Below, in pieces: positions 1,883 to 21,204 of a DNA stretch of 33,001 bases (positions are counted from its first letter, which is position 1; each line of letters opens with the position of its first letter). The notes under the pieces were generated by a model, which did not search any database, was not told where the DNA came from, and saw only the letters and a program-made list of their open reading frames with translations. Source of the DNA: Atractiella rhizophila (Eukaryota); assembly GCA_021432655.1 (NCBI GenBank), contig MU271199.1, forward strand, positions 142,793 to 175,793, read 5' to 3'. The translations under genes and the position numbers were made by a program.

Positions 1883-4800
1883 ATGCCAGCGAATGACCGT
1901 CGACCGGCAACTTTGAAGCGCAAGACGAGCCTGCGGTCTGGTGCTGGGAAGGAAAGGGAAAGGGAAAAGCGACCTATGTCTCCTTTATCAGACGCTAAGA
2001 GTATAGAAACTGGTAGGCCTTCGCATGATAATTTGAAGAGGTGCTAGCGTCGTTCAATTTACTTCATAATGCAGTGAGAGAGAGGAACCACATTCACTCC
2101 TCCAAGCGAAGGATCCTGATCAAGCTGAGGACGCTGCTACCCCTCAAGATCCCTCACTCGCATTCTCATTCTCATTCGCAACACGACCACCAGCATGGCA
2201 GACAGAAGAATCGCCATACCCCTCATTTGTCACTCCCTCACTTCCCTCCCAAAGACTTATTTACCCCTACGAGCGTTAGACTTCCAAGTGTACAAGAGGA
2301 GAAAGAGAAGGAACCTCCTGTGCGGCCTAATATCAAGATTCGTGTGGTAACTTGGAGTACGTTTCCGTCTGATCATAAGATGAAATACAACGGTTGATCA
2401 AAAGCCACAAAGATATGCATGACTCTCTCCCAACCGGAGACCTTTCAGACCTTCTTGGAGAAATCCCTGAACAATTCCACGAGCCTTTCCAGCAAGTTCC
2501 CACCCCTACCTCTCAACGAGCTGCCTCTTCTGGCTCCACATCCGATTCTGTACCTCCGACTCCTCATTCACATGCCTCGACCTCCTCCTCGAGAGGGAAC
2601 CGCACAAACAATTCCGCGCCTTCACCACCGGAGAAGGAAAACGGTATCCCCCTCTTTCCGTACGATTCGAACCACCCATACCATATCGTCGTTATAGGAG
2701 GACAGGAGTGTCCATCTATGCCTTATCACGATCTAAGAGGTCGGAAGGGGTGGACGGACATTCTAGAGGACTGGTTGTCTTCTGGCCCTACCAAACCCCC
2801 CGAACGAAACCACTCCCAACCCTTCGTCGCTTCTCCCGTCTCTCAGCACTCCCGCCTCTCGTCCAGTGGCGGCGGAGAGGCAGCTCCAAGGTCTAGTTTC
2901 CAAGAAATTCGACCGGTGGTTCGGGAGGCAGCGGCGTCTATCAGGAGCTCGTTGAGCGTCAGGAGCATCTTGCAGAAGCGGAAGGAGAGGGAAAGCGAGC
3001 ATAGGGAGGATGAGGAAGATCGGGAGAGTTTGAGGAGCTTCAGTAGCGATAGGGATCCGGACGGCGACAGCGAGAGCAGTAGCAGCGAGAGTGAGAGTGA
3101 GGAGGATAGTGTGAGGAGGAGGAGGAGGAAGACACCCTATGTTTTGGTTGCCAAGGAGAGACTTATGGGCATATATCTTGCCGTATTCGTTTTTCACGAA
3201 TGCCGACATCTCGTGCAGAAGATTTCGAAGAGTAAAGTTACCTCTGGGTTGTTGGGAGGGAGGGTTGGGAATAAGGGATCTGTTGGCATTAGCGTCAACT
3301 TTGCAGATTCGCGCCTCCTTTTCATGTCGACCCACCTCGCAGGTCAATCTCATTCTAGCAAGTTGGATTGGTTGTATTAATGGGTTGCTTGGGGGACAGC
3401 ACACCAAGGCGGGGTGGCTATAAGGAAGGCAAATGTGGAGAAGATCAAGCACGAGCTCACTAACAACGACTTTCAACCTGGAGAATCAACTAGTAAAGAT
3501 ATAACGGACCGCTTTGACCAGGTCTTCTTCTTTGGTGATCGTGCGTCTTCTCTACGGTAACCCTGCTGTCCTGCTTTCTCACTGCCTTCTCCGGCGGTAG
3601 TCAATTTTCGACTCAATATTTCAAGGTTACATGCGGATTGGCTTCTCAAGGCGAAAGACTACGATAATGCGCTCAAGTTCGATCAGCTTAAGGAGATACT
3701 CAATCAGCAAGAATCCTGCTTGAAAGGCTTCAATGAGGCTCCCATCAAATTTCCTCCTACCTACAAGTGCTTCTTCCATATACATTTCAGAGACTGCAGC
3801 TAAGAGCAGTGCAGGTACGACCTCCTCAAGCTCACACGACGAAAAAGTTACACCAAGGCTGGTAAGAAGGTGAAGCGAGGAATGGACGACGGGGACAACG
3901 ATGATGCCCTTTCCTTCCTTTCTTCCCGCACATCAATGGAAGATCCCGACCGTCCAGAACTCCCCAGTCCCCTTCCGTCTTCGCAACAAGTTCCCAAATT
4001 ACCTCCAGTTACAGAAACGGACCAATCCCTCGCCCCCGTCCTCCAGAAAGCCAAACTCAAATTCTTGACGCTCGTGCGATCCCGTAGTGCTCTCCAACTT
4101 GCCTCTCGGGCGAGAGAGCAAACCAACGAGACGAACGAAATAGAGATCATTGTGCCCGACAAAGGGACTCTGTCTATTGACCCTGAAGCCGAAGGCCGCC
4201 TCAGATTACCGAGTATAAGAATGGCGAAGAGCGATATTGCCCTTCCTTTGACTGAGAATACGCCTAAACTGAAAATGGTTGCCGATGCCGTGTTCGATAG
4301 CAGTAGCAAGCAGAGAGTGCAGAGCTGGACAGGTTTGTATCTCGGCCTCTCTATTAGACAAGGATATTGAAGGTGGACTAGATCGTATCTTATTCAAGAC
4401 CAATGTTCGAAGCAAGGAAAAGTCTGAAGAAGTCGAACATGGCGCGACGACTGTAGCCTTTACGCTCTCACCATTTCCTACGCCATCTTCAATTGCGACA
4501 TCTCTTGCACCAACTGGCTCTCCTTCACTAACGGTCTCCACTCCACTTTCAACTTCTACCGTTCTTTCTCCGTCAACACCTCGCCCTCCAGTTTTCTCGA
4601 CCACGCTAGAAACCGTCTCATTAGAACAGTCCTCTGGCGTGAAGACACCTTTGACCGCACGTCCGACAGCGCCGTCCGATCTTCTTGGATATCCTACAGA
4701 AAGCGCGGTTACACCGTTGACCGCACGACCTATACCGCCTCCAATCCAGCTTGGGTACGGTGCTCCTCACGAAACACCCAAGAGATCCCCTCATACTCCA

Positions 4801-5499
4801 AGGAAACCAAATCGCTCATACACATTACCAGTGCCTGCTCAACCTCCAGCTGATCCTCCAGGTCAACCCCCGCCTTTGAACGTACGGCCGTCCAAAACTG
4901 GTCTCTGGGCCAGGTTTAAGCTGCATTCGCAGCCACCCGCACCAATGCAGGACGCCCATGCCCCCGCAACGGAACCCAAGATTCTAGAAAGGACCGAGCA
5001 AAGTACCACAATGGGCACTCGTCATAAACGTGGCCGTTCGCACACTATCACGGGCACTGTTACCCCTACGACCGCTTCCCAGAATCTTACTGAACTTGAG
5101 CCTCAGCCTGTCCAAATCACGGACTCACCTCCTTCCCTTCTCCCGCGCACCTCCAGCAGGAACCCAGGGCGAAAGAACACGCGCATCGTCTCTCTCGACT
5201 CTGGACCAACCTCTCCATCCATCCGCTCCGAGGCACAAGCAGCCACACTTCCAAATCCAAGTATCGCTCGTCCAGGCGGCTTCTCTCTTGGAAATCTTAG
5301 AGCCTTCTTCATGCGAAGGCAACACTCGATCAATCCTGTCATGGAGCCTGGGCCAGAAGAGCTGAAGGAACCTGAACCACTTGGCCCAAAGAGGGGAGAG
5401 ATAGAGTGTCTACTTTACGACAGCGTTGCAGACTTGAGGAAGATGGAAGCGTACTCAGATCATCGCCCAGTCATCGGTGTGTATCTTGTTGGTATTTGA
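1883..5499 (+). CDS. Inositol polyphosphate 5-phosphatase family protein with long low-complexity insertions
   Basis: Splicing reconstitutes IPPc motifs: IRVVTWN, VIGGQEC, GNKGSVGIS, HLAAH, FFFGDLNFR, FPPTYKYD, QSWTDRILFK, YSDHRPV. Introns include 2013-2074, 2358-2412 and 3767-3814. The start at ATG 1883 is inferred from an in-frame first exon. Confidence 0.88.
4645..4765 (+). repeat. Imperfect in-frame tandem duplication (66-nt period) in the 5-phosphatase
   Basis: ACACCTTTGACCGCACG at 4645 and ACACCGTTGACCGCACG at 4711. The peptides are TPLTARPTAPSDLLGY and TPLTARPIPPPIQLGY. Confidence 0.75.
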
Positions 5500-6420: not shown

Positions 6421-7995
6421 TCATTTCCCCTCCAACCAGGCTTTAATCTCTCTCACCACCGCCTGCAAGACTGGTCTCTCTGTCCCGTTCTCACCTTGAC
6501 CCTCACTCATTGGAATCCACACCATACCCTCCGCCTCTTTGAACACGCCATGATCCCTAAATTCTGCCACCAAAGTCTGAAATTGTTTCTCGCTCAAACT
6601 CAGGAAGAGTTCTTCTGCCATTGCCAAAAGTTCCGCTGCAGGTAGCGAATAAGGAGGAATGGGAGATTTGCTCGGTTTCTTTGACGGAGAGACAGAGAGT
6701 TGGGATTCAGCGAGGAGGAGGAATATATGCTGTGATCTTGCGGTCACGGAGCGGAGGATAGAAAGCAGCGACGATTTCGATTGACTCCCTTCGACTCGTG
6801 CAGATACTTCTTCCCCTTCTTCCTCCTCATCCGAATCTCCTTCCCTTCCGTCTTCTTCGATGCGGATTGTACCCCGAGACTTAAGACCTTTCTTCTTGCT
6901 GAACAAACGTGAAGTGGGAAAGTCGTCGATAGCGAGAATATGACCTGAGGGGAACAGAGAGGCGAGGAGACCAGAATGAAAGGCTTCCAGTGAGAATGGG
7001 GAAAATGTAGGGATATGATGATGGACGAAATTGAAAGATCGACCGTATGAAGCTGAAGAGGAGTTCAAAGATTCGTCGTGCTCGTCTTGCTCGTCTTGCT
7101 CCTCTCCCAACAACGTCTCATCCGTGACGGCGGAGTCTGGCGAAAAAATGCTGTAATGAGGAGCATAAGAGCCGAAACGATGCCGCGTATCAAAGAGGTA
7201 GGCCCATTTGCCTTGAGCGTTGTCCACGCTGATGATGAGGCGGAACCCTTTACAATTTGCCAGACGGAGAAGAGTTTCCAAGCCAAAAGGAGAGGTGAGG
7301 TTTTGAGACAGCGTCAAGGAGTGAAAGAAGAGATAAATCGGAGTCCCGTAGGCGTTCTCGGAACTGAAGTAGTCGATCAAGGCATGCAGCCGACGTGTCA
7401 ACACGGCTACGGACTGGTTCGGATTTGGGAGTGTGAAGAGAGGTGGAATGTCAAGTTGCTCTGGCTGCCCGTCTTGCGCCGTTGCTTTTCCCTTTCCCTT
7501 CACCTTCTTGTCTCCCTCCCATCGCTGTCGCACCATTTCAAGTCCCCTTAAAATCTCCTCCACCCCCAAATCCACATCATTTCGGAATGCCTCAAAGACT
7601 AAAACCTCCCCTCTTTCTCTCAGTACCCCAGCAAAGTCATTCACCGTCTCCCTCTTGCTCCCAACGCCATAGAATAATAGGTTAAACCCGCTATCTAGTT
7701 CAACAGTCCACTGATGATATGATCTCTTGTACGATGACGCGTGTTCCGCTGGTGCTTGAGGAAGGGATGCGAAAAAAGTGGATTTCGTAAACGGTTTGCT
7801 GACGAGGTCGGAAAACTGGGAATCTGAGATTTTGGCTTTCCGGAATGTGAGGGATTGGTGTGTCAGGTACCGATCCGCCGCTGTAGCTTGCACGAAATGA
7901 CGAGAGCTAGAACCAAGTTCTTCCTCGCCATCTGACGGTTGAGGAGCGCGTTCGACGCGAATCTCGGATGCCTTTCTTTTGCGTGGACGCGCCAT
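6421..7995 (-). CDS. ORC2: Origin recognition complex subunit 2
   Basis: 524-aa single-exon ORF containing QWTVELDSGFNLLFYGVGSKR (ORC2 signature), LIISVDN and HHIPTFSPF, plus a C-terminal winged-helix-like FQTLVAEFRDHG segment. Confidence 0.9.
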   Translation of the reverse strand: MARPRKRKASEIRVERAPQPSDGEEELGSSSRHFVQATAADRYLTHQSLTFRKAKISDSQFSDLVSKPFTKSTFFASLPQAPAEHASSYKRSYHQWTVELDSGFNLLFYGVGSKRETVNDFAGVLRERGEVLVFEAFRNDVDLGVEEILRGLEMVRQRWEGDKKVKGKGKATAQDGQPEQLDIPPLFTLPNPNQSVAVLTRRLHALIDYFSSENAYGTPIYLFFHSLTLSQNLTSPFGLETLLRLANCKGFRLIISVDNAQGKWAYLFDTRHRFGSYAPHYSIFSPDSAVTDETLLGEEQDEQDEHDESLNSSSASYGRSFNFVHHHIPTFSPFSLEAFHSGLLASLFPSGHILAIDDFPTSRLFSKKKGLKSRGTIRIEEDGREGDSDEEEEGEEVSARVEGSQSKSSLLSILRSVTARSQHIFLLLAESQLSVSPSKKPSKSPIPPYSLPAAELLAMAEELFLSLSEKQFQTLVAEFRDHGVFKEAEGMVWIPMSEGQGENGTERPVLQAVVREIKAWLEGK

Positions 7996-9211: not shown

Positions 9212-9897
9212 CTACTCTTCGACAGAGATGGTAGAGTCGATCAAGATAAGCTTTCCGTTCGAAGCCTATCCGATCTTGAGCCAATACAAAAACGTCAGAA
9301 TGAAAAGCTCACCGTCCTAGTATCAACTGCCTTAGCTCCTTGGACAATCCAGTGCTCGCCGTCCTTCCGAACCTCAATATTTCTCCCCTGCAAAGTCTCA
9401 TACTCCCTCTTCTCCTCAATGTCTTCTACCTGTCCCGGAATGACGTGAACTTTCACCCATTCTTCCAAGTACTTCTTGTTTTCTTCCTCCTTCTGAATCT
9501 GCGGCATATCTTCTGTTCCTGAACGAGATGGAGGTCCCTGATGCGGTTTGCGTGGAAGAGCGATGATGGCATGATTGATAGGGACGATAACAGTGGATAG
9601 CAGAGTGGAGTCCGAAATGCGGGATACCTTCTCCGCTCATCAGAAGTCTGTGAGCACGTAAAATAGAAACAAGCATACTACATCCTTGAACTCCCTCAGA
9701 TAGTCGTAGAATATGTTTCCCCTCCTCTCAATCGTGAGTATATCCTGGAGGTTTGGTCCCTTCGAGGCAACAAAAGGATCACTCTCTACTGACATCTCGA
9801 TATTTTGGGACGAGAAAACAAGCTGATCTGCTTCAACTGGCTCTGCTTTTGAAAATGCTGAAAGCACACAAGCTGCAAAAAGTAAGAGTGACTTCAT
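9212..9897 (-). CDS. Secreted FAS1 (fasciclin)-domain protein, 3 exons
   Basis: Signal peptide MKSLLLFAACVLSAFS, then LQDILTIERRGNIFYDYLRE, TVIVPINHAIIALPRKPHQGP, WVKVHVIP and terminal ASNGKLILIDSTI (FAS1 H1/H2-like motifs). Confidence 0.8.
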
Positions 9898-9988
9898 GGT
9901 TGCCTCCTTTCGCGAAGATTGGTTGGCCAGATTTGGAGTCCTGTCACGGTGGAGTTTCGGGGGACCAAGTCAGCTGCTGCGAAGAAGC

Positions 9989-10117: not shown

Positions 10118-11640
10118 ATGTCTAACAAGAATCTCAAGAGATCAAGGTCGTCGACCGAGGACGAAGATTTTTCACTCGCCCAAGATGATCAATTCATCGA
10201 TCCCACCCTCCCTGCCCCTAAAAAGGCAAAGAACGGTGGTGGAAGGCAGAAGGCCACGGAGGATGAGAAGGCTGCCAGAAAAGCTGCCAGGATGGCTAGG
10301 AATCGAGGTATTTTTTTCTCGGTCATAGTTGAGGGTCTGTGCGCAGTTTTGACTGATCCATCTGATGGACGCAGATGCCGCCCAGGCCAGCCGAGATCGT
10401 AGAAAACAATACATCACGGAACTCGAATCCAAAGTCAGATCTCTCGAAACCCTCCTTTCATCCTCCGGTGGCTCCAACACCGACTCCCCTCTCGCTGTCC
10501 TCGAAGAGTCGAGGAACCTGAAGGAGGAGAACGAATCCCTTAAATCCCGTCTCGACATCATGGCCCACGAGTCACTCGAACTCAAACGCCGCCTCCAAAC
10601 CCTCGAATCCAAGTTCTCCTCCGTCGCCCCGTCCCTCTCCCCATCCTCTCCCCATTCATCCATCGGTTCATCCGTCCCAGACTTCAGCTACCCTCTGTTT
10701 CCCACGAACAGTAGCTCGATTGGGAGGTTCTCCAGCCCCGACAAAGATGCTAACCGCCTCGTAGCACGCGAGGTCAAAGTTTCCCTGCAGCGGAAAACAT
10801 CTTTGAAGGATTGGACTTCTCCTTTCAGTCACCGACCGAAGGTCATGGTGTCGGATCTCAGATCTTCACCGAAGGAGGATCCGGAGATGGACAACAATTA
10901 TGGGCTTCCATCCCCGGAATCAGTGAAGGAAGTCAGTTTGGGGGAGCCACCGGGAACGGTGCCGGATTTGAGAGCTTAAACTACTTCATTGGGAGCGGTG
11001 TGGAGGGGGAGGTGGCGGGAGGTGTGGAGGAGTTGTTTGGGGTTGGTGGGGAGAATGTCTTCGGGGTTGGACTTGGGAGAGAAATGATGGGTATGGATGG
11101 AGTGGTGAATCTGTTTGGGAATGAGGTTGCGGTTGGAAGCGGAGTGGGAGAAGATGTTAGTTTCGGTGGAGCGATGTTGGGAGAAGGGGACGTACTTTTG
11201 AACGGTTCTGGTTCTGAAGAGGCAAGCGGATCGATCGTGATCGAGGATTTCAAGATGGAGGGAACTAGTATAGATAAGAAGGTGGATGGGGTGTTGAGCA
11301 CGCCGATCCTGGATCGTAATTTGGGAAGGGAGATTAAGAGTGAAGGACAAGCGGACGACTGGAATTCCTTTTTCCAGGAATCATCGATCTTCTCGGACAC
11401 CGATAATATCTACGATGTCCTTTCGATCAGTTCGTCGAGTAGTCCAAGAAGCGAAGACGACACGGGTATGTTTGGAGACGGCCTCAAGATGTTGGGATTC
11501 ACAACTTCCGAACTCGAAATCGACAACCTTGGAGACGGAGGCATGGGATCTCTTACCCTAGGTTTGTCCTTCGCGGTGTTTCATGTTCGTCTCCTGACGT
11601 TTGGGTTATGACTGTAGCGAATCAACCAGCATCCTCGTGA
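10118..11640 (+). CDS. HAC1: UPR bZIP transcription factor (HAC1/HXL1/Cib1/XBP1 type): unspliced form 264 aa (stop 10979), IRE1-spliced form about 458 aa (stop 11640)
   Basis: Basic region EKAARKAARMARNR-DAAQASRDRRKQYITELESKV spans canonical intron 10308-10374 and is followed by a leucine zipper. Removing 10765-10787 joins it to the acidic ORF 10811-11611. A final canonical intron lies at 11562-11617. Confidence 0.88.
10742..10805 (+). other. IRE1 substrate bifurcated stem-loop containing a 23-nt unconventional intron (10765-10787)
   Basis: The basal stem is CAAAGATG (10742-49) paired with CATCTTTG (10798-805). Hairpin 1 is CCTCG-[TAG^CACG]-CGAGG. Hairpin 2 is TTTCC-[CTG^CAGC]-GGAAA. There are no GT-AG ends, and excision gives the needed frameshift. 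Confidence 0.85.
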
Positions 11641-16001: not shown

Positions 16002-19000
16002 TCACAGTAACAATCTCTGAGCCAAACCAATCTACACCAAATGGTTTCAGTTTTCTATAACGGGTAAGGAAAAAATGGAGTGCTGACCTTATCTCCCAGC
16101 GCCAGCGCAATACCCTGAGTCTTGCTTCTTATCCTCACATGCCCCTGAATCGAATCTTCCGTCTTTTCGATCGACAGGTTGGCCAACGCATCCTCTCCTA
16201 GAGCGGGGAATCAGTACGCATTAAAACGATGGATGGGACTATCTACCAAATAATGAACGGGCGTAAAGGTTGGCAGAAAGGAAGCCGCAATCTCCTTCAA
16301 GAGCTGCTTCGGGTGTTAAGCACGCCATATTTGTTGCTGTCAGGATGTGCTGTAGATCTGCGAAAGTATCCCGTCAATTCTAAATAACTGAAGAGAGCAG
16401 AGCCACATACAAGTTTTTAGACTATCGATTGTGGTGTTAACGTTCACCCTATTCTCCCACTCGAACTCTGTCCACATATTCCTAAAGGTTTGTTCCGGAC
16501 ACTTTGCGGGTTGGATATAGTCGAGGATGTCAATGTGAATGTCGTTTAGCACCACCGCATGAGAATCTTGCGTTGTCAATGATGCATCGTAGAAAATGTT
16601 GCCAAAGATGACACCTGTCTCTGTGGACGAGACCTTCACCGTCGCTTTCATCGATTGGAATGAGTGCGGCCCTAACGTGTAGGTGATGGGTTTCTCGATG
16701 AGCTTCAGATCTCCCAACGTTGCGAACTCGAGAGTGAGGTTCTGTAGGGTCTCAGTCGTTTGGTTGACGATGAGGACGTCTAGGAGGATGTCGAACTGTG
16801 CCACCTTGACGTACGCCTCAGCATAAACCGGATCCGAAAATCCTGCTCACTTCTCAGTATCGCTATCATCACCCAAGTCAGATATAACGCACCTGTAAGC
16901 TGTACGACTCTACTCAGTCGATTAACAAAGTCTTCCTTCTGCTCCGCCCCGGTCGCACCCTTCAAATCGGCCTCCTGCTCATCGACTCCTTCCGCTCCTT
17001 TCTTCGCGAAACCCCTGAACGAGATCATATCGTCAGGCTGGACCTTGACGTCTTTCTTCTCTTTCGACTTTTGTTCTTTTTCCACCCGCTCTTGTTGCTT
17101 CAACATCGTGACGTAAGCATCTTGGGTCTCCTCCAGGAAGATCTTTCGCATCTCGAGGTTGTTGGGTGTGGAGAGGATGGTGAGGCAGGAAAAGATTCGT
17201 TCGGTGGTGTCTTCGTCTATTGGGACGGCTGTTATGGAGGATTGACCGATGCGGACTATCGAGGTCATTATCAACATTGCCTAGCATCACACGCGTCAGG
17301 ATTTCGAAATTTAAGCTGAGTAGGGGGGAGAAGAGACAGACCTCGGCTCGTAAAGAGTTCATAAACTTGGGGTCCTTCTCCACCCCCTCCATCCTCAACA
17401 CCAACTTGGTGATGGTGACTGACAGCACAGCAGCTGTAAAAAAGTCACCACCAAGGATCAATCCCCTCAGAGGGGGTTTATTGGCCAACTTATCAGCCTT
17501 CTTCTTCTCCTCCACCACGGTCTCAGTCACATAAGTTCCATCCTCCAACACCTTCGTCTTCGTCGTGACCTTTCCCTCTCCGACTTCTTCTGATGCTTCC
17601 TCTTCCTGCCTCTCTTCTCGAATAGGCACTTCCCCGATCCCCTCCCTGATACCCCTCCAAGCATCTTTCACCTCTTCTCGCGTCTCCGCATACTCTCCAA
17701 TCACCCACAACGCTCCTCGCAGCGCTTTTCCACTCTTCATCGTCCCCACCCCCTCGCTCAGTTGTTTCAGGATGGGACTTCGGAGGTCGTGGAACTTGTG
17801 TACTGCTTCTCGAACGAAGGAGATGACCTCCGTCATCGTGGCTGAGGAGGTCGTGGAAATAGGATCTTGGAGGACGGGGAGGAGGTGGAATATGGTCGAT
17901 GAGGCGATCGAAGGGTGAGAGAGGGAGAGAGAGTGAATCGTGGAAATCAAAAGTTGACGGTATTCGTTGTTCTACTCCCTCTATTCAGCCACCTTATCCA
18001 GAAACCATCCAAAGGATATAGCAAGAGTGAGGGACGGAGAGACAGACCTTATCATTCTCCATCGGTTTCGACAACTCCTTCTTCAAGACTCCCACGACCT
18101 CTTCCACATTCCTACTATTAACAAGCTTCATGCCCATCTCCAAAGCCTTCTTCTTGACCTCCAAATCCGTCCTTCCAACCAACCGATCCATCAGTCTCCT
18201 ATTCACATGACGAAGAAGATAGTGGCCGGGAAGCTCACGAGCTCAAGACGGCGAGTAAATCGACGACGAGTGCTTCCAAGACTCCCTCGCCTTCAAATCG
18301 TTCGCGAAGGGCATCCAATCGCTCGAGGACGATGAGCTTGACATTGTTGTCGCTCTCCTTCGTGATGAGCGATATATAACAGTTAGCCGCAGCTACGCCA
18401 TTCCATGAGCAGTTACAAAGTATTCGAAGCGATGACACGAACCTTGGACGGCGGATGGGTTCCCTGTCAGTCCGGTCAACGTGGTCGCTGCTTCGTATTT
18501 CACGCCTCGGGAGTTAGAAGAGAGAAGCTCGAGGGCGAGACGGATGTATTTCGCCTTGTGATCATGAGCAATTCACTCCCTTGGAATGGGAAAGGAGGAG
18601 GTCTGCATACCTTGTCGGCGGCGGAGACTCGCGGTCCTTCCTTCCGAATAACCTCGACGATGGAAAGTTGCAAGACCTCGTCCATGCCCGCGACCTAGCA
18701 TCGTCAACATTGATCACCATCCAACTAAGGTACATGAGAGTGATAGGAAAGAAGCATACACTGTCCAGATTGGATTTGAGCCATTGAAGTGCAGTCGGGG
18801 GTGAGATCGTGGACAGCGCCACGAATGCGTTTCTCAGACAGGTCGGATCGCTTTCCTGCTCCGTCTTCGATCAACGTGGAAGGACAAGGAAGGAATGAAA
18901 TGACAAACGGCGGCTAGGAAGGTTTCTAACAGTTCTGCAGCATCGGGTACAAGGTGTTCTGCTACTTTGTAGATGGAAAAGATCGCAAAGATGGCGTTTT

Positions 19001-19558
19001 TGCGGACATATTGATGTCGATGTTCCTGCGTTTAAACCGTCTCAACGCACCTCCCTTTGCAACGTTTGAGGACATAAATGATGGGATACGCACGAGACAA
19101 GCCCTGGCTGTAGGAACGAGAGGTTCGAGCAGCTCAACCTCCCTAATCTTCTGCAAAAACCTCAACGTAGCCCCCCTTATGTACTCGTTCGGGTGCTGCA
19201 GATCGTTCCTGATAGCATTACAAACGAGGATCATTTCCTGTCTCAGCGTTCCTTCCTTTCCATCCTCATATTTCGGGCAAACTTCCCAGTAAAAGTGTAC
19301 GAGCTTCTTCAGCTGCTTGCTCTTCGACGGCAACACATATTGGATGACTGGCATAAGCAACCCCGAGGTATTGCTCGACCCCGAGAGAGTCTGGAGGATG
19401 AGATGCTTGAGGGCGAGCACGCGGAGGGAGTCTGGACCCTTTTGGAGGGCTGAGCGGAGGTCAGAGGTGGAGGGCGAGTCGGAGAGGCCGCCGCCTGAGG
19501 AGGAGGAGAGGGAGGAGAGGAAGCTGTCGGATATGAGGAAGTGGATTGGCTGCTCCAT
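16002..19558 (-). CDS. SEC26: Coatomer (COPI) subunit beta, multi-exon
   Basis: [107 protein letters not shown] and [16 protein letters not shown]. The last exon is IGLAQRLLL*. Confidence 0.97.
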
Positions 19559-19796
19559 CGCTCGTCGTCGCTTTGGAGTGATGGAAGACTGGCGAAAGTT
19601 GGCTGAAGTGATGCAGCTGTCGATGTGGAACTCGATAAAATCGTTGCGGCTATTCCCGTTGATACTCACTGCACCAGGCAGTCGCCGACACACGTGACTT
19701 AAGAACGCCACTTTTCTAGCGACCAAGAAACTCATCATCTGCCCTGTCAGCCACTCCCCCGCTCTCGCTACTTCTCATCCGATAAGAATATTCGAA

Positions 19797-21204
19797 ATGG
19801 TCCGTGTTTTTATGCTTTACAGCTGGTTTAGGACCTGACGATCTACGGAACGCAGCCAACTGCAGCAGCGCTGAAGAAGATAGCTCGTGATCTCACCAAC
19901 CTCGCTCGCGCTCCTTCAGAGGGTATAAGGGTGTGTGACGGATGGGATGAGAATCTGGGGGAGGACGTGTTGTGTTGGGTGGAAGGGCCCAAAGGAACGG
20001 CTTACGAAGGTGCGCACCGTTCTTTGTTGAAGAAGCAAAATGTGCCGTGTTGGGTTTGGATGTGGAAAATCGCTGCTCATGCCTTTTCTGCATGTCGACA
20101 GGTGGCTTCTTCAAAATATCATTCCAATTCGGAGACGACTTTCCAGCCGCTCCTCCAAAAGGTCAGTCGATCCCTTGCCTCCATGTTGAATGAATTTCTA
20201 CTCACCTTAATCTGACAGGGTTCTTCCGGACCAAGATCATGCACCCCAATGTCTCTCCATCCGATGGAGCGATATGCGTCTCGACGTTGAAGAAGGACTG
20301 GAAGTCTACGCTCACGATTGCAGACGTGCTCATAAACATCAAGGGCCTGATGTTCTGCCCTAATGCGGAATCGGCACTGAACGAAGATGCGGGCAGACTC
20401 ATGCTCGAAGACTGGGACGCATTTGTGGGTAGAGCGAGGATGTTTACGAGCATCAACGCGATCCCGAAGGAGAAACCGGTCGAGTTTCGTCGAGTCAAGG
20501 ATCGTGTAGATACTTCGACATCTGCTTCAGCTTCCACCTCCACCTCCGCCTCCACATCAGCAACCAGTTCGATGCCGGCAACAAGTACAAGTACAGCTCC
20601 TTTAGTCCCACCACCAACATCTCACAAGAAGAAGCGCGGCGCATCTCCCATCCCCTTCCCACCATTACCCAAAGATGCTCCCACCTCCCTATCTCTCACA
20701 ACATCCATCGAAAACGGTGCTTCATCACCCATTTCAACCATGAGGCGACGGGAACGATCAACTTCTGGACAACCTCTCGTCGCCCCAGCCGGGAACGGGA
20801 TAGGCACGTCAGAATCAGAGACGGACGGCATGTCGAACGCTCCTTCAGTACCTATCAGGCCACCGTCCGGTGGCTTCACTCCCATACCCTCCCCAGTCAA
20901 CTCTTCATTTCCAACCTCTGCCGTTGCAACTCCAGGTCAAGAAAACACGTCTACCTTCCCAAGTCAAGAAACGGGTGCAAAGGGAGGAGAGGATGTGGAG
21001 ATGAAGGATACTGCTTCGATGTCCAACGTCACCGTCATAGCTGGACTTGTGGGGAATGGAACGGGAAGGAAGAGGACGTTAACTAGCACGCTTGTGGATG
21101 CGGTGGGTGGTTCGAATGCTTTGAAGAAGGAAAGGAGGGACGGAGGAGTCATCGGTGGCTTGCGACCAGTCATTAAGCGGAGAACGGGATTGAAGAGACT
21201 TTGA
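19797..21204 (+). CDS. UBE2S: Ubiquitin-conjugating enzyme E2 S-like with long Ser/Thr/Pro-rich C-terminal extension
   Basis: Exons are ATG (19797-99), 19856-20009, 20102-20161 and 20219-21204. Motifs: GPKGTAYEGG, FPAAPPKG, KIMHPNV, ICVSTLKKDW (catalytic Cys), PNAESALNEDAG and C-terminal KRRTGLKRL. Confidence 0.85.

Follow-up and report, generated by a model that had tools for sequence, protein, structure and literature searches.

Do two neighbouring reading frames in the genome of Atractiella rhizophila, currently annotated as separate hypothetical proteins, form a single regulatory gene whose halves are joined by something other than the spliceosome? This question is raised by positions 10118-11640 (plus strand) of a 33,001-nt stretch of contig MU271199.1 (hereafter the window), where a bZIP-encoding open reading frame (ORF) overlaps an acidic one and two hairpins can be drawn in the overlap. 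Our analysis indicates that the locus is very probably one gene, the A. rhizophila orthologue of the HAC1/XBP1/Hxl1/Cib1 bZIP factor belonging to the unfolded protein response (UPR), containing an Ire1-type unconventional intron. This interpretation, first proposed from inspection of the DNA letters (hereafter the original prediction), is supported by the conservation of the peptide that the hairpins encode, by compensatory changes in a second DNA locus, L001, and by proteins of relatives in which the two frames are joined.

As we picture the process, the spliceosome would remove 10308-10374 and 11562-11617, and the resulting mRNA would encode a 264-amino-acid (aa) bZIP protein with a short neutral tail, while its segment 10742-10805 would fold into two hairpins with 7-nt loops on a basal stem. 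Under endoplasmic reticulum (ER) stress, the Ire1 RNase would cut 3' of the third loop position, G3, after 10764 and 10787, and an RNA ligase would join the cut ends. With 23 nt deleted, translation would continue in the other frame and give a protein of 458 aa, of which 264 form an acidic tail; this product is presumably the active transcription factor. Observed in this analysis are the structure, the arithmetic of the frames, the conservation and the spliced-type proteins of relatives; that Ire1 makes the cuts, where exactly they fall, that stress triggers them, that a ligase follows and that the tail works as an activator is what we infer.

Excision of 23 nt would replace a neutral tail with an acidic one

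The gene model consists of the following features, all on the plus strand.

10118..10307 (+): exon 1, 63 codons plus 1 nt, running from the start codon through half of the bZIP basic region (its first half)
10308..10374 (+): intron 1, canonical GT-AG, 67 nt (GTATTT...GCAG), inside the basic region
10375..10764 (+): exon 2, with the remaining bZIP domain, leucine zipper and linker, up to the 5' cleavage site, where it reads ...NRLVA
10765..10787 (+): 23-nt unconventional intron, predicted to be of Ire1 type; its removal would join the frame that ends at 10979 to the frame open to 11611
10788..11561 (+): exon 3 (after unconventional splicing), an acidic, Gly-rich and aromatic-rich tail, putatively an activation domain
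10788..10979 (+): dual-coding stretch, being the end of the 70-aa neutral tail in the unspliced frame and the start of the acidic tail in the spliced frame
11562..11617 (+): intron 3, canonical GT-AG, 56 nt (GTTTGT...TGTAG)
11618..11640 (+): exon 4 and stop codon of the spliced form, the 458-aa product ending ANQPASS*

Excision after G10764 and G10787 removes 23 nt (10765-10787). In place of ...NRLVAREVKVSLQRK..., which runs to the stop at 10977-10979, the mRNA would then encode ...NRLVAAENIFEGLDFSFQ..., read in the frame of the stop-to-stop ORF 10754-11611. The claim that this removal shifts the bZIP frame into the acidic ORF is thus arithmetically correct, the product growing from 264 to 458 aa. 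The unspliced product ends in a 70-residue tail with 11 D/E and 11 K/R, and the tail of the spliced product (264 residues, with 44 D/E against 9 K/R, 21 aromatic residues and 51 Gly) is acidic, as anticipated. The predicted junction reads ...NRLVA|AENIFEGLDF.... The cut register is fixed by the rule that cleavage falls 3' of loop G3; because both sites read G|CA, shifts of the register by -1 to +2 nt would give the identical mRNA.

The downstream frame is open from 10754 and contains no in-frame ATG before 11084, a span of about 110 codons. Codon log-odds over 10980-11561 favour this acidic frame (+0.26, versus -0.24 and -0.45 in the other frames), and in the dual-coding overlap both frames score positive (+0.29 for the unspliced and +0.09 for the spliced frame).

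The predicted intron lies in a twin-hairpin structure

The structural elements around the predicted cleavage sites are listed below.

10742..10749 (+): basal stem, 5' arm, 8 bp, paired with 10798-10805 in the minimum free energy (MFE) and centroid structures
10757..10773 (+): hairpin 1 at the 5' splice site, with stem 10757-10761/10769-10773 and loop 10762-10768 (UAG|CACG), predicted cut after G10764
10780..10796 (+): hairpin 2 at the 3' splice site, with stem 10780-10784/10792-10796 and loop 10785-10791 (CUG|CAGC), predicted cut after G10787
10798..10805 (+): basal stem, 3' arm, paired with 10742-10749

Two hairpins on an 8-bp basal stem had been proposed for 10742-10805, and every one of these elements was recovered at its coordinates. 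When 78 nt were folded with RNAfold, the three-helix fold was both the MFE and the centroid structure (-23.9 kcal/mol, z -2.58, with 4 of 200 shuffles as stable), and folding 211 nt gave it again (z -2.36; 7 of 200 shuffles were equally stable). Both 7-nt loops have G at position 3, followed by C-A. The published loop motif of S. cerevisiae Ire1 is CNG|(C/A)NGN (PMC8104961) and the general loop consensus is CNG'CNGN (PMC8071499). The 3' loop, CUG|CAGC, fits the former, in agreement with its earlier designation as an XBP1-type loop.

A second DNA locus retains the structure through compensatory changes

A scan of metagenome contigs gave 598 pattern matches, among which one locus, L001, was confirmed. 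At L001:2445-2500 the same three helices are present, with a 10-bp basal stem of different sequence (z -2.14, 6 of 200 shuffles as stable). Its hairpin 1 has the loop CAGCACA and a C-G closing pair where the window has G-C, its hairpin 2 has the loop CUGCAGC, identical to that of the window, and the two hairpins abut directly with no spacer. When the two sequences were aligned with MAFFT, 5 of 18 pairs had changed on both sides, 4 of them among the 8 basal-stem pairs, and 97% of cells pair, versus 36-53% when the partners are slid by 1-3 columns. Cuts after each loop G of L001 remove 17 nt (predicted intron L001:2467-2483) and connect ORF 1989-2807, which holds its bZIP frame, with ORF 2441-2800, whose product is acidic and aromatic. 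In predicted architecture the agreement between L001 and the window is complete, though two sequences are few.

The hairpin-encoded peptide is conserved in related proteins

Relatives were collected with the unspliced ORF as query (5 proteins among 400 candidates, alignment A1), with a profile search of 1.84 billion representatives (127 matches at E up to 1e-3) and with a word-indexed search (82 matches, the named ones mostly from Microbotryomycetes). Genera represented among the named homologues are Rhodotorula, Rhodosporidiobolus, Sporobolomyces, Microbotryum, Meredithblackwellia and Galerina. Some of these relatives are named 'X-box-binding protein 1' by UniRef, and a protein atlas holds a basidiomycete cluster auto-named in the same way, which we take as a lead only.

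In alignment A1 the residues R-L-V-A-R-E-V and S-L-Q-R-K are invariant across the 5 proteins, while the surrounding Ser/Pro-rich linker is poorly conserved; hairpin 1 encodes the LVARE part and hairpin 2 the SLQRK part of this block. Apart from the basic region, RLVAREVxxSLQRK is the best-conserved block in relatives. Among 173 related proteins, L[VP]A[RQV]E occurs in 66 (64 of them LVARE), and in 62 of these 66 it is followed within 14 residues by [LQ][QP]R, the peptide of the 3' loop being LQR in 37, LPR in 23 and QQR in 2. Variation is confined to the free loop and spacer positions, namely a spacer of 0-5 residues and Q/P at loop N; assuming the codons of the window, the change from LQR to LPR would alter just the free 'N' of the 3' loop.

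The intron lengths implied by these 62 proteins are 17 nt (9 cases), 20 nt (8), 23 nt (40), 26 nt (3), 29 nt (1) and 32 nt (1). All are 2 modulo 3 because they were computed from in-frame peptides, and this regularity is therefore not evidence. The 17 nt of L001 and of the 9 peptide-inferred cases is below the 19-nt minimum quoted for such introns (PMC6222058). In practical terms, searching for the signature RLVARE-(0-5 aa)-SL[QP]R would be a simple means of locating and correcting this kind of mis-annotation in many genomes of Rhodotorula, Sporobolomyces and Microbotryum.

As a separate observation, several Rhodotorula genomes contain two close copies of this bZIP gene that share a contig and whose locus tags differ by a few numbers (including the pairs P0134/P0137, P0142/P0143, P0131/P0153 and P0139/P0157), which suggests local duplication of the UPR regulator in that genus.

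Joined-frame proteins exist in relatives

Pairs of close homologues agree up to RLVA/RLPA and then diverge abruptly. The unspliced-type protein P0081 and the joined P0088 are identical at 80/80 positions upstream of this point and at 6/60 downstream; P0066 (unspliced) and P0069 (joined) match at 79/80 and 3/60 positions; and P0130 of R. toruloides NP11 matches R. toruloides P0142 and P0143 at 70/80 positions upstream, and at 6/60 and 8/60 downstream, respectively. The downstream tails of the joined forms are acidic, and their junction falls where the Ire1 rule places it. Such pairs are what translated spliced mRNAs, or gene models guided by RNA, would look like.

P0055 reads RLVA|AEAV, the same junction type as the RLVA|AENI predicted here. 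P0142 and P0143 read RLVA|PEAV, which could be the work of a gene caller that imposed a GC-AG intron of equal length, displaced 3 nt downstream; an equivalent GC...AG pair is available in the window at 10768-10790.

Observations that weigh against an Ire1-type intron

Several observations count against the presence of an Ire1-type intron at this locus. With respect to structure, the fold z-scores are moderate (-2.1 to -2.6), and the original drawing with two 7-nt loops stood only in part: the three-helix fold was recovered by RNAfold, but hairpin 1 was closed to a 5-nt loop, because the MFE structure adds one G-U and one U-G pair. The covariation described above comes from two DNA sequences only. 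We also scanned the window for twin hairpins whose 7-nt loops both carry G as the third base, one or both loops being canonical, with hairpin stems no shorter than 5 bp and a basal stem no shorter than 6 bp. The scan gave 2 sites on both strands together, and when the window was simulated 200 times with a first-order Markov model, 26 of the simulations had one or more such motifs. Chance is not negligible for the twin-hairpin structure taken alone. What makes this site non-random is its position in a 226-nt frame overlap, its fit to the right length class and, above all, its conservation.

The other motif match in the window lies on the minus strand near 4724, with loops GCGGTCA and CGGACGT 59 nt apart and an 8-bp basal stem. 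We take it as a chance match because it is antisense to ORF 4273-5496 and has no frame logic; its occurrence fits the chance rate measured in the simulations.

An Rfam search had been suggested as a check, and it gave no match to a HAC1/XBP1 intron: with E allowed up to 10, the 4001 bases surrounding the site gave only three chance-level matches, all to unrelated families, a result to be read with the caveat that the existence of an Rfam model for such an intron is not established.

At the protein level, 107 of the 173 related proteins have no LVARE-type peptide; some of these are truncated models, some are models with other introns, and paralogues are probably among them. The acidic tail, used as a query, matched its own NCBI fragment alone (1 match among 2186 candidates), and it has no significant pairwise similarity to the tails of L001 or P0003, which share with each other a weak 13-residue match (E 0.004). 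Activation domains are commonly without detectable similarity between relatives. The codon test was trained on a small set of 7 ORFs (3293 codons).

Finally, in the 5' loop, UAG|CACG, only the G at -1 is kept, with U at -3 and C at +3 where, according to PMC8104961, S. cerevisiae Ire1 needs C and G. No CNGNNG site is found within 10750-10775, and the strict S. cerevisiae pattern of CNG|(C/A)NGN in both loops is therefore present here in the 3' loop only.

The 5' loop deviation may be shared among basidiomycetes

The deviation of the 5' loop is probably not peculiar to A. rhizophila. The 5' loop of L001, CAG|CACA, likewise has C at +3, and throughout the clade V-A-R is a nearly universal peptide, from which U at -3 and C (or A) at +3 can be deduced. 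Three agaricomycete-like proteins, P0118, P0126 and P0173 (one of them from Galerina marginata), read HLARVA...SLQRV. This peptide again implies a 5' loop of the UNG|CNCG type, together with introns that are longer (about 38-50 nt), so the non-consensus loop may be a general basidiomycete trait. If that holds, the short intron would then be a compaction specific to Pucciniomycotina.

It is conceivable, and we advance it tentatively as a proposal that may well prove mistaken, that Pucciniomycotina and possibly Basidiomycota as a whole combine a canonical 3' loop with a UNG|CNCG 5' loop, with an Ire1 recognition unlike that in yeast and human, and that within the same clade the intron has been compacted to as little as 17 nt. 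Recognition would differ from that of the yeast and human enzymes because two of the three loop bases described as 'invariant' are missing from UNG|CNCG. As a conserved departure from the consensus, the 5' loop offers a natural test of the substrate strictness of Ire1.

Alternative explanations for the joined frames

Among the alternatives, the one that survives best, and which we nevertheless consider improbable, is that the spliceosome joins the two frames by removing an intron of its own, be it constitutive or alternative. There is no shortage of candidates: the frame stays open with 380 GT/GC-AG pairs in the appropriate length class, which weighs against our interpretation. The best spliceosomal candidate is GT-AG 10779-10828 (50 nt, donor GTTTCC, acceptor ...CCTTTCAG), whose acceptor at 10828 is preceded by a pyrimidine tract; another is the 23-nt GC-AG pair 10768-10790, and the RLVA|PEAV junction of the R. 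toruloides proteins P0142 and P0143 would be expected from a GC-AG call displaced by 3 nt. None of the candidates has a strong donor, though the confirmed introns of this gene also have weak ones (GTATTT and GTTTGT). Removal of 10779-10828 would, however, retain 'REVK', and the joined proteins of relatives lose everything after RLVA/RLPA; introns of 17-23 nt are far below the usual size of fungal spliceosomal introns. NCBI annotators called introns 1 and 3 and yet left the two halves unjoined. A spliceosomal intron would also leave the conservation of both hairpins and of the basal stem unexplained.

Slightly less probable still is that the locus holds two independent genes as annotated, the conserved RLVAREV..SLQRK then serving a function as a peptide within the bZIP protein, with the RNA fold as a by-product. 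In favour of this, NCBI annotates two models, the overlap scores as coding in the unspliced frame (+0.29), and peptide conservation by itself cannot distinguish constraint on the RNA from constraint on the protein. The basal stem, however, lies partly outside the conserved peptide and still pairs through 4 double changes in L001, and the peptide varies exactly where the RNA is free to vary, in the length of the spacer and in Q/P at loop N. The downstream frame, moreover, stays open for about 110 codons ahead of its first ATG, and proteins of relatives join the two frames at the same point. These observations contradict a reading of the locus as two genes.

Programmed -1 ribosomal frameshifting from the bZIP frame into the acidic frame, stimulated by the hairpins, would account for the frame change (codon phase 0 to phase 2, equal to a -1 shift) and for the stable structure, but we reject it as having a negligible probability: there is no in-phase X XXY YYZ slippery heptamer immediately upstream of the structure, the structure spans the switch point instead of following it, and frameshifting would retain 6-10 inter-loop residues that are absent from the joined proteins of relatives.

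Public annotation and genomic surroundings

In the NCBI annotation the locus appears as two separate hypothetical proteins, BT69DRAFT_320201 and BT69DRAFT_1276593 (P0002 and P0001), and both ORF halves are 99-100% identical to NCBI proteins with BT69DRAFT locus tags. The expectation that standard gene callers would mis-annotate such a locus is thus confirmed by these two models. P0002 (206 aa) starts at an internal Met at 10292 and ends at the unspliced stop, and P0001 (165 aa) starts at 11087 and covers just the last part of the acidic frame. Both canonical introns of our model agree with the public proteins: the intron 1 join, MARNR|DAAQASRDRRK, is an exact match to P0002, and the intron 3 join, ...GSLTL|ANQPASS*, is an exact match to P0001. 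P0002 lacks 58 upstream codons (10118-10294), including the ...EKAARK.ARM.RNR start of the basic region; it is also N-terminally truncated, because homologues keep the stretch upstream of Met 10292. The '...EKAARKAARMARNR' stretch of exon 1 matches the segment of P0003 upstream of its basic region.

That the gene encodes a bZIP protein, as originally stated, is evident from Pfam, where 10377-10976 matches bZIP_1 (E 6.7e-6) and bZIP_2 (E 1e-3), both of which are also precomputed on P0002. With the exon 2 query, the bZIP_1 score of 26.6 bits is slightly below the 27.6 cut-off because the query lacks exon 1. The predicted unconventional intron lies about 125 codons downstream of the basic region. 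Our reading would correct the annotation by merging the two 'hypothetical proteins', BT69DRAFT_320201 and BT69DRAFT_1276593, into one UPR regulator.

The genes around the bZIP locus are ordinary housekeeping genes: an endonuclease/exonuclease/phosphatase-family protein (2379-3377), ORC2 (6424-7995), an adaptin N-terminal-region protein split over two ORFs (17036-19774) and a ubiquitin-conjugating enzyme (20194-21201). Next to the bZIP gene, a small divergent ORF at 9640-9969 (minus strand) has a signal-peptide-like start (MKSLLLFAACVLSAFS...) and no Pfam match, and may encode a small secreted protein.

Comparison with known systems

The closest parallels in architecture are animal XBP1, plant bZIP60 and hacA/hac-1 of filamentous ascomycetes. 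In these systems, too, a bZIP gene carries close twin hairpins with 7-nt loops, a short intron and a 3' loop fitting CNG|CNGN, and the frame shift swaps the C-terminus for an activating tail. The introns of animal XBP1 and plant bZIP60 are 26 nt and 23 nt long, respectively. Introns of this type measure 20-26 nt in filamentous ascomycetes (PMC8071499) and 19-29 nt in other fungi (PMC3154848), and introns as short as these and the one predicted in the window leave no room for the pairing between 5' untranslated region (UTR) and intron known from S. cerevisiae. In contrast to these systems, which have CNG|CNGN, the 5' loop of the window is UAG|CACG, and its protein is only distantly related to theirs outside the basic region; protein searches with the bZIP of the window retrieved no relatives outside the basidiomycetes.

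HXL1 of Cryptococcus neoformans and cib1 of Ustilago maydis belong to the same phylum as A. rhizophila. According to published accounts, both have a conventional intron in or near the bZIP region and an unconventional one downstream, their Ire1-dependent splicing alters the C-terminus, and their unspliced mRNA has an open frame, as in the window. The unconventional introns of HXL1 (56 nt; PMC3154848) and cib1 (65 nt; PMC8071499) are longer than that predicted for the window, as had been noted at the outset, and the lengths predicted here (23 nt, with 17-32 nt implied in relatives) lie outside this long-intron type of about 56-65 nt. The HXL1 and cib1 proteins themselves were not identified among our matches, of which only part carried names.

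S. cerevisiae HAC1 shares the class of mechanism: two stem-loops are cut by Ire1, the ends are sealed by tRNA ligase and the protein receives another C-terminal tail. However, both of its loops follow the strict CNG|(C/A)NGN (PMC8104961), unlike the 5' loop of the window, and its 252-nt intron pairs with the 5'UTR and blocks translation (PMC3154848).

A full-text literature search, which extended to few subscription papers and did not include Hooks & Griffiths-Jones 2011, returned no description of this intron in Pucciniomycotina or Atractiella. The locus is very probably a hitherto unannotated case of the known HAC1/XBP1/Hxl1 class, and with it A. rhizophila, a member of Pucciniomycotina and an endophyte of poplar roots, would gain a recognisable UPR switch, which could be assayed through a change of 23 nt in size.

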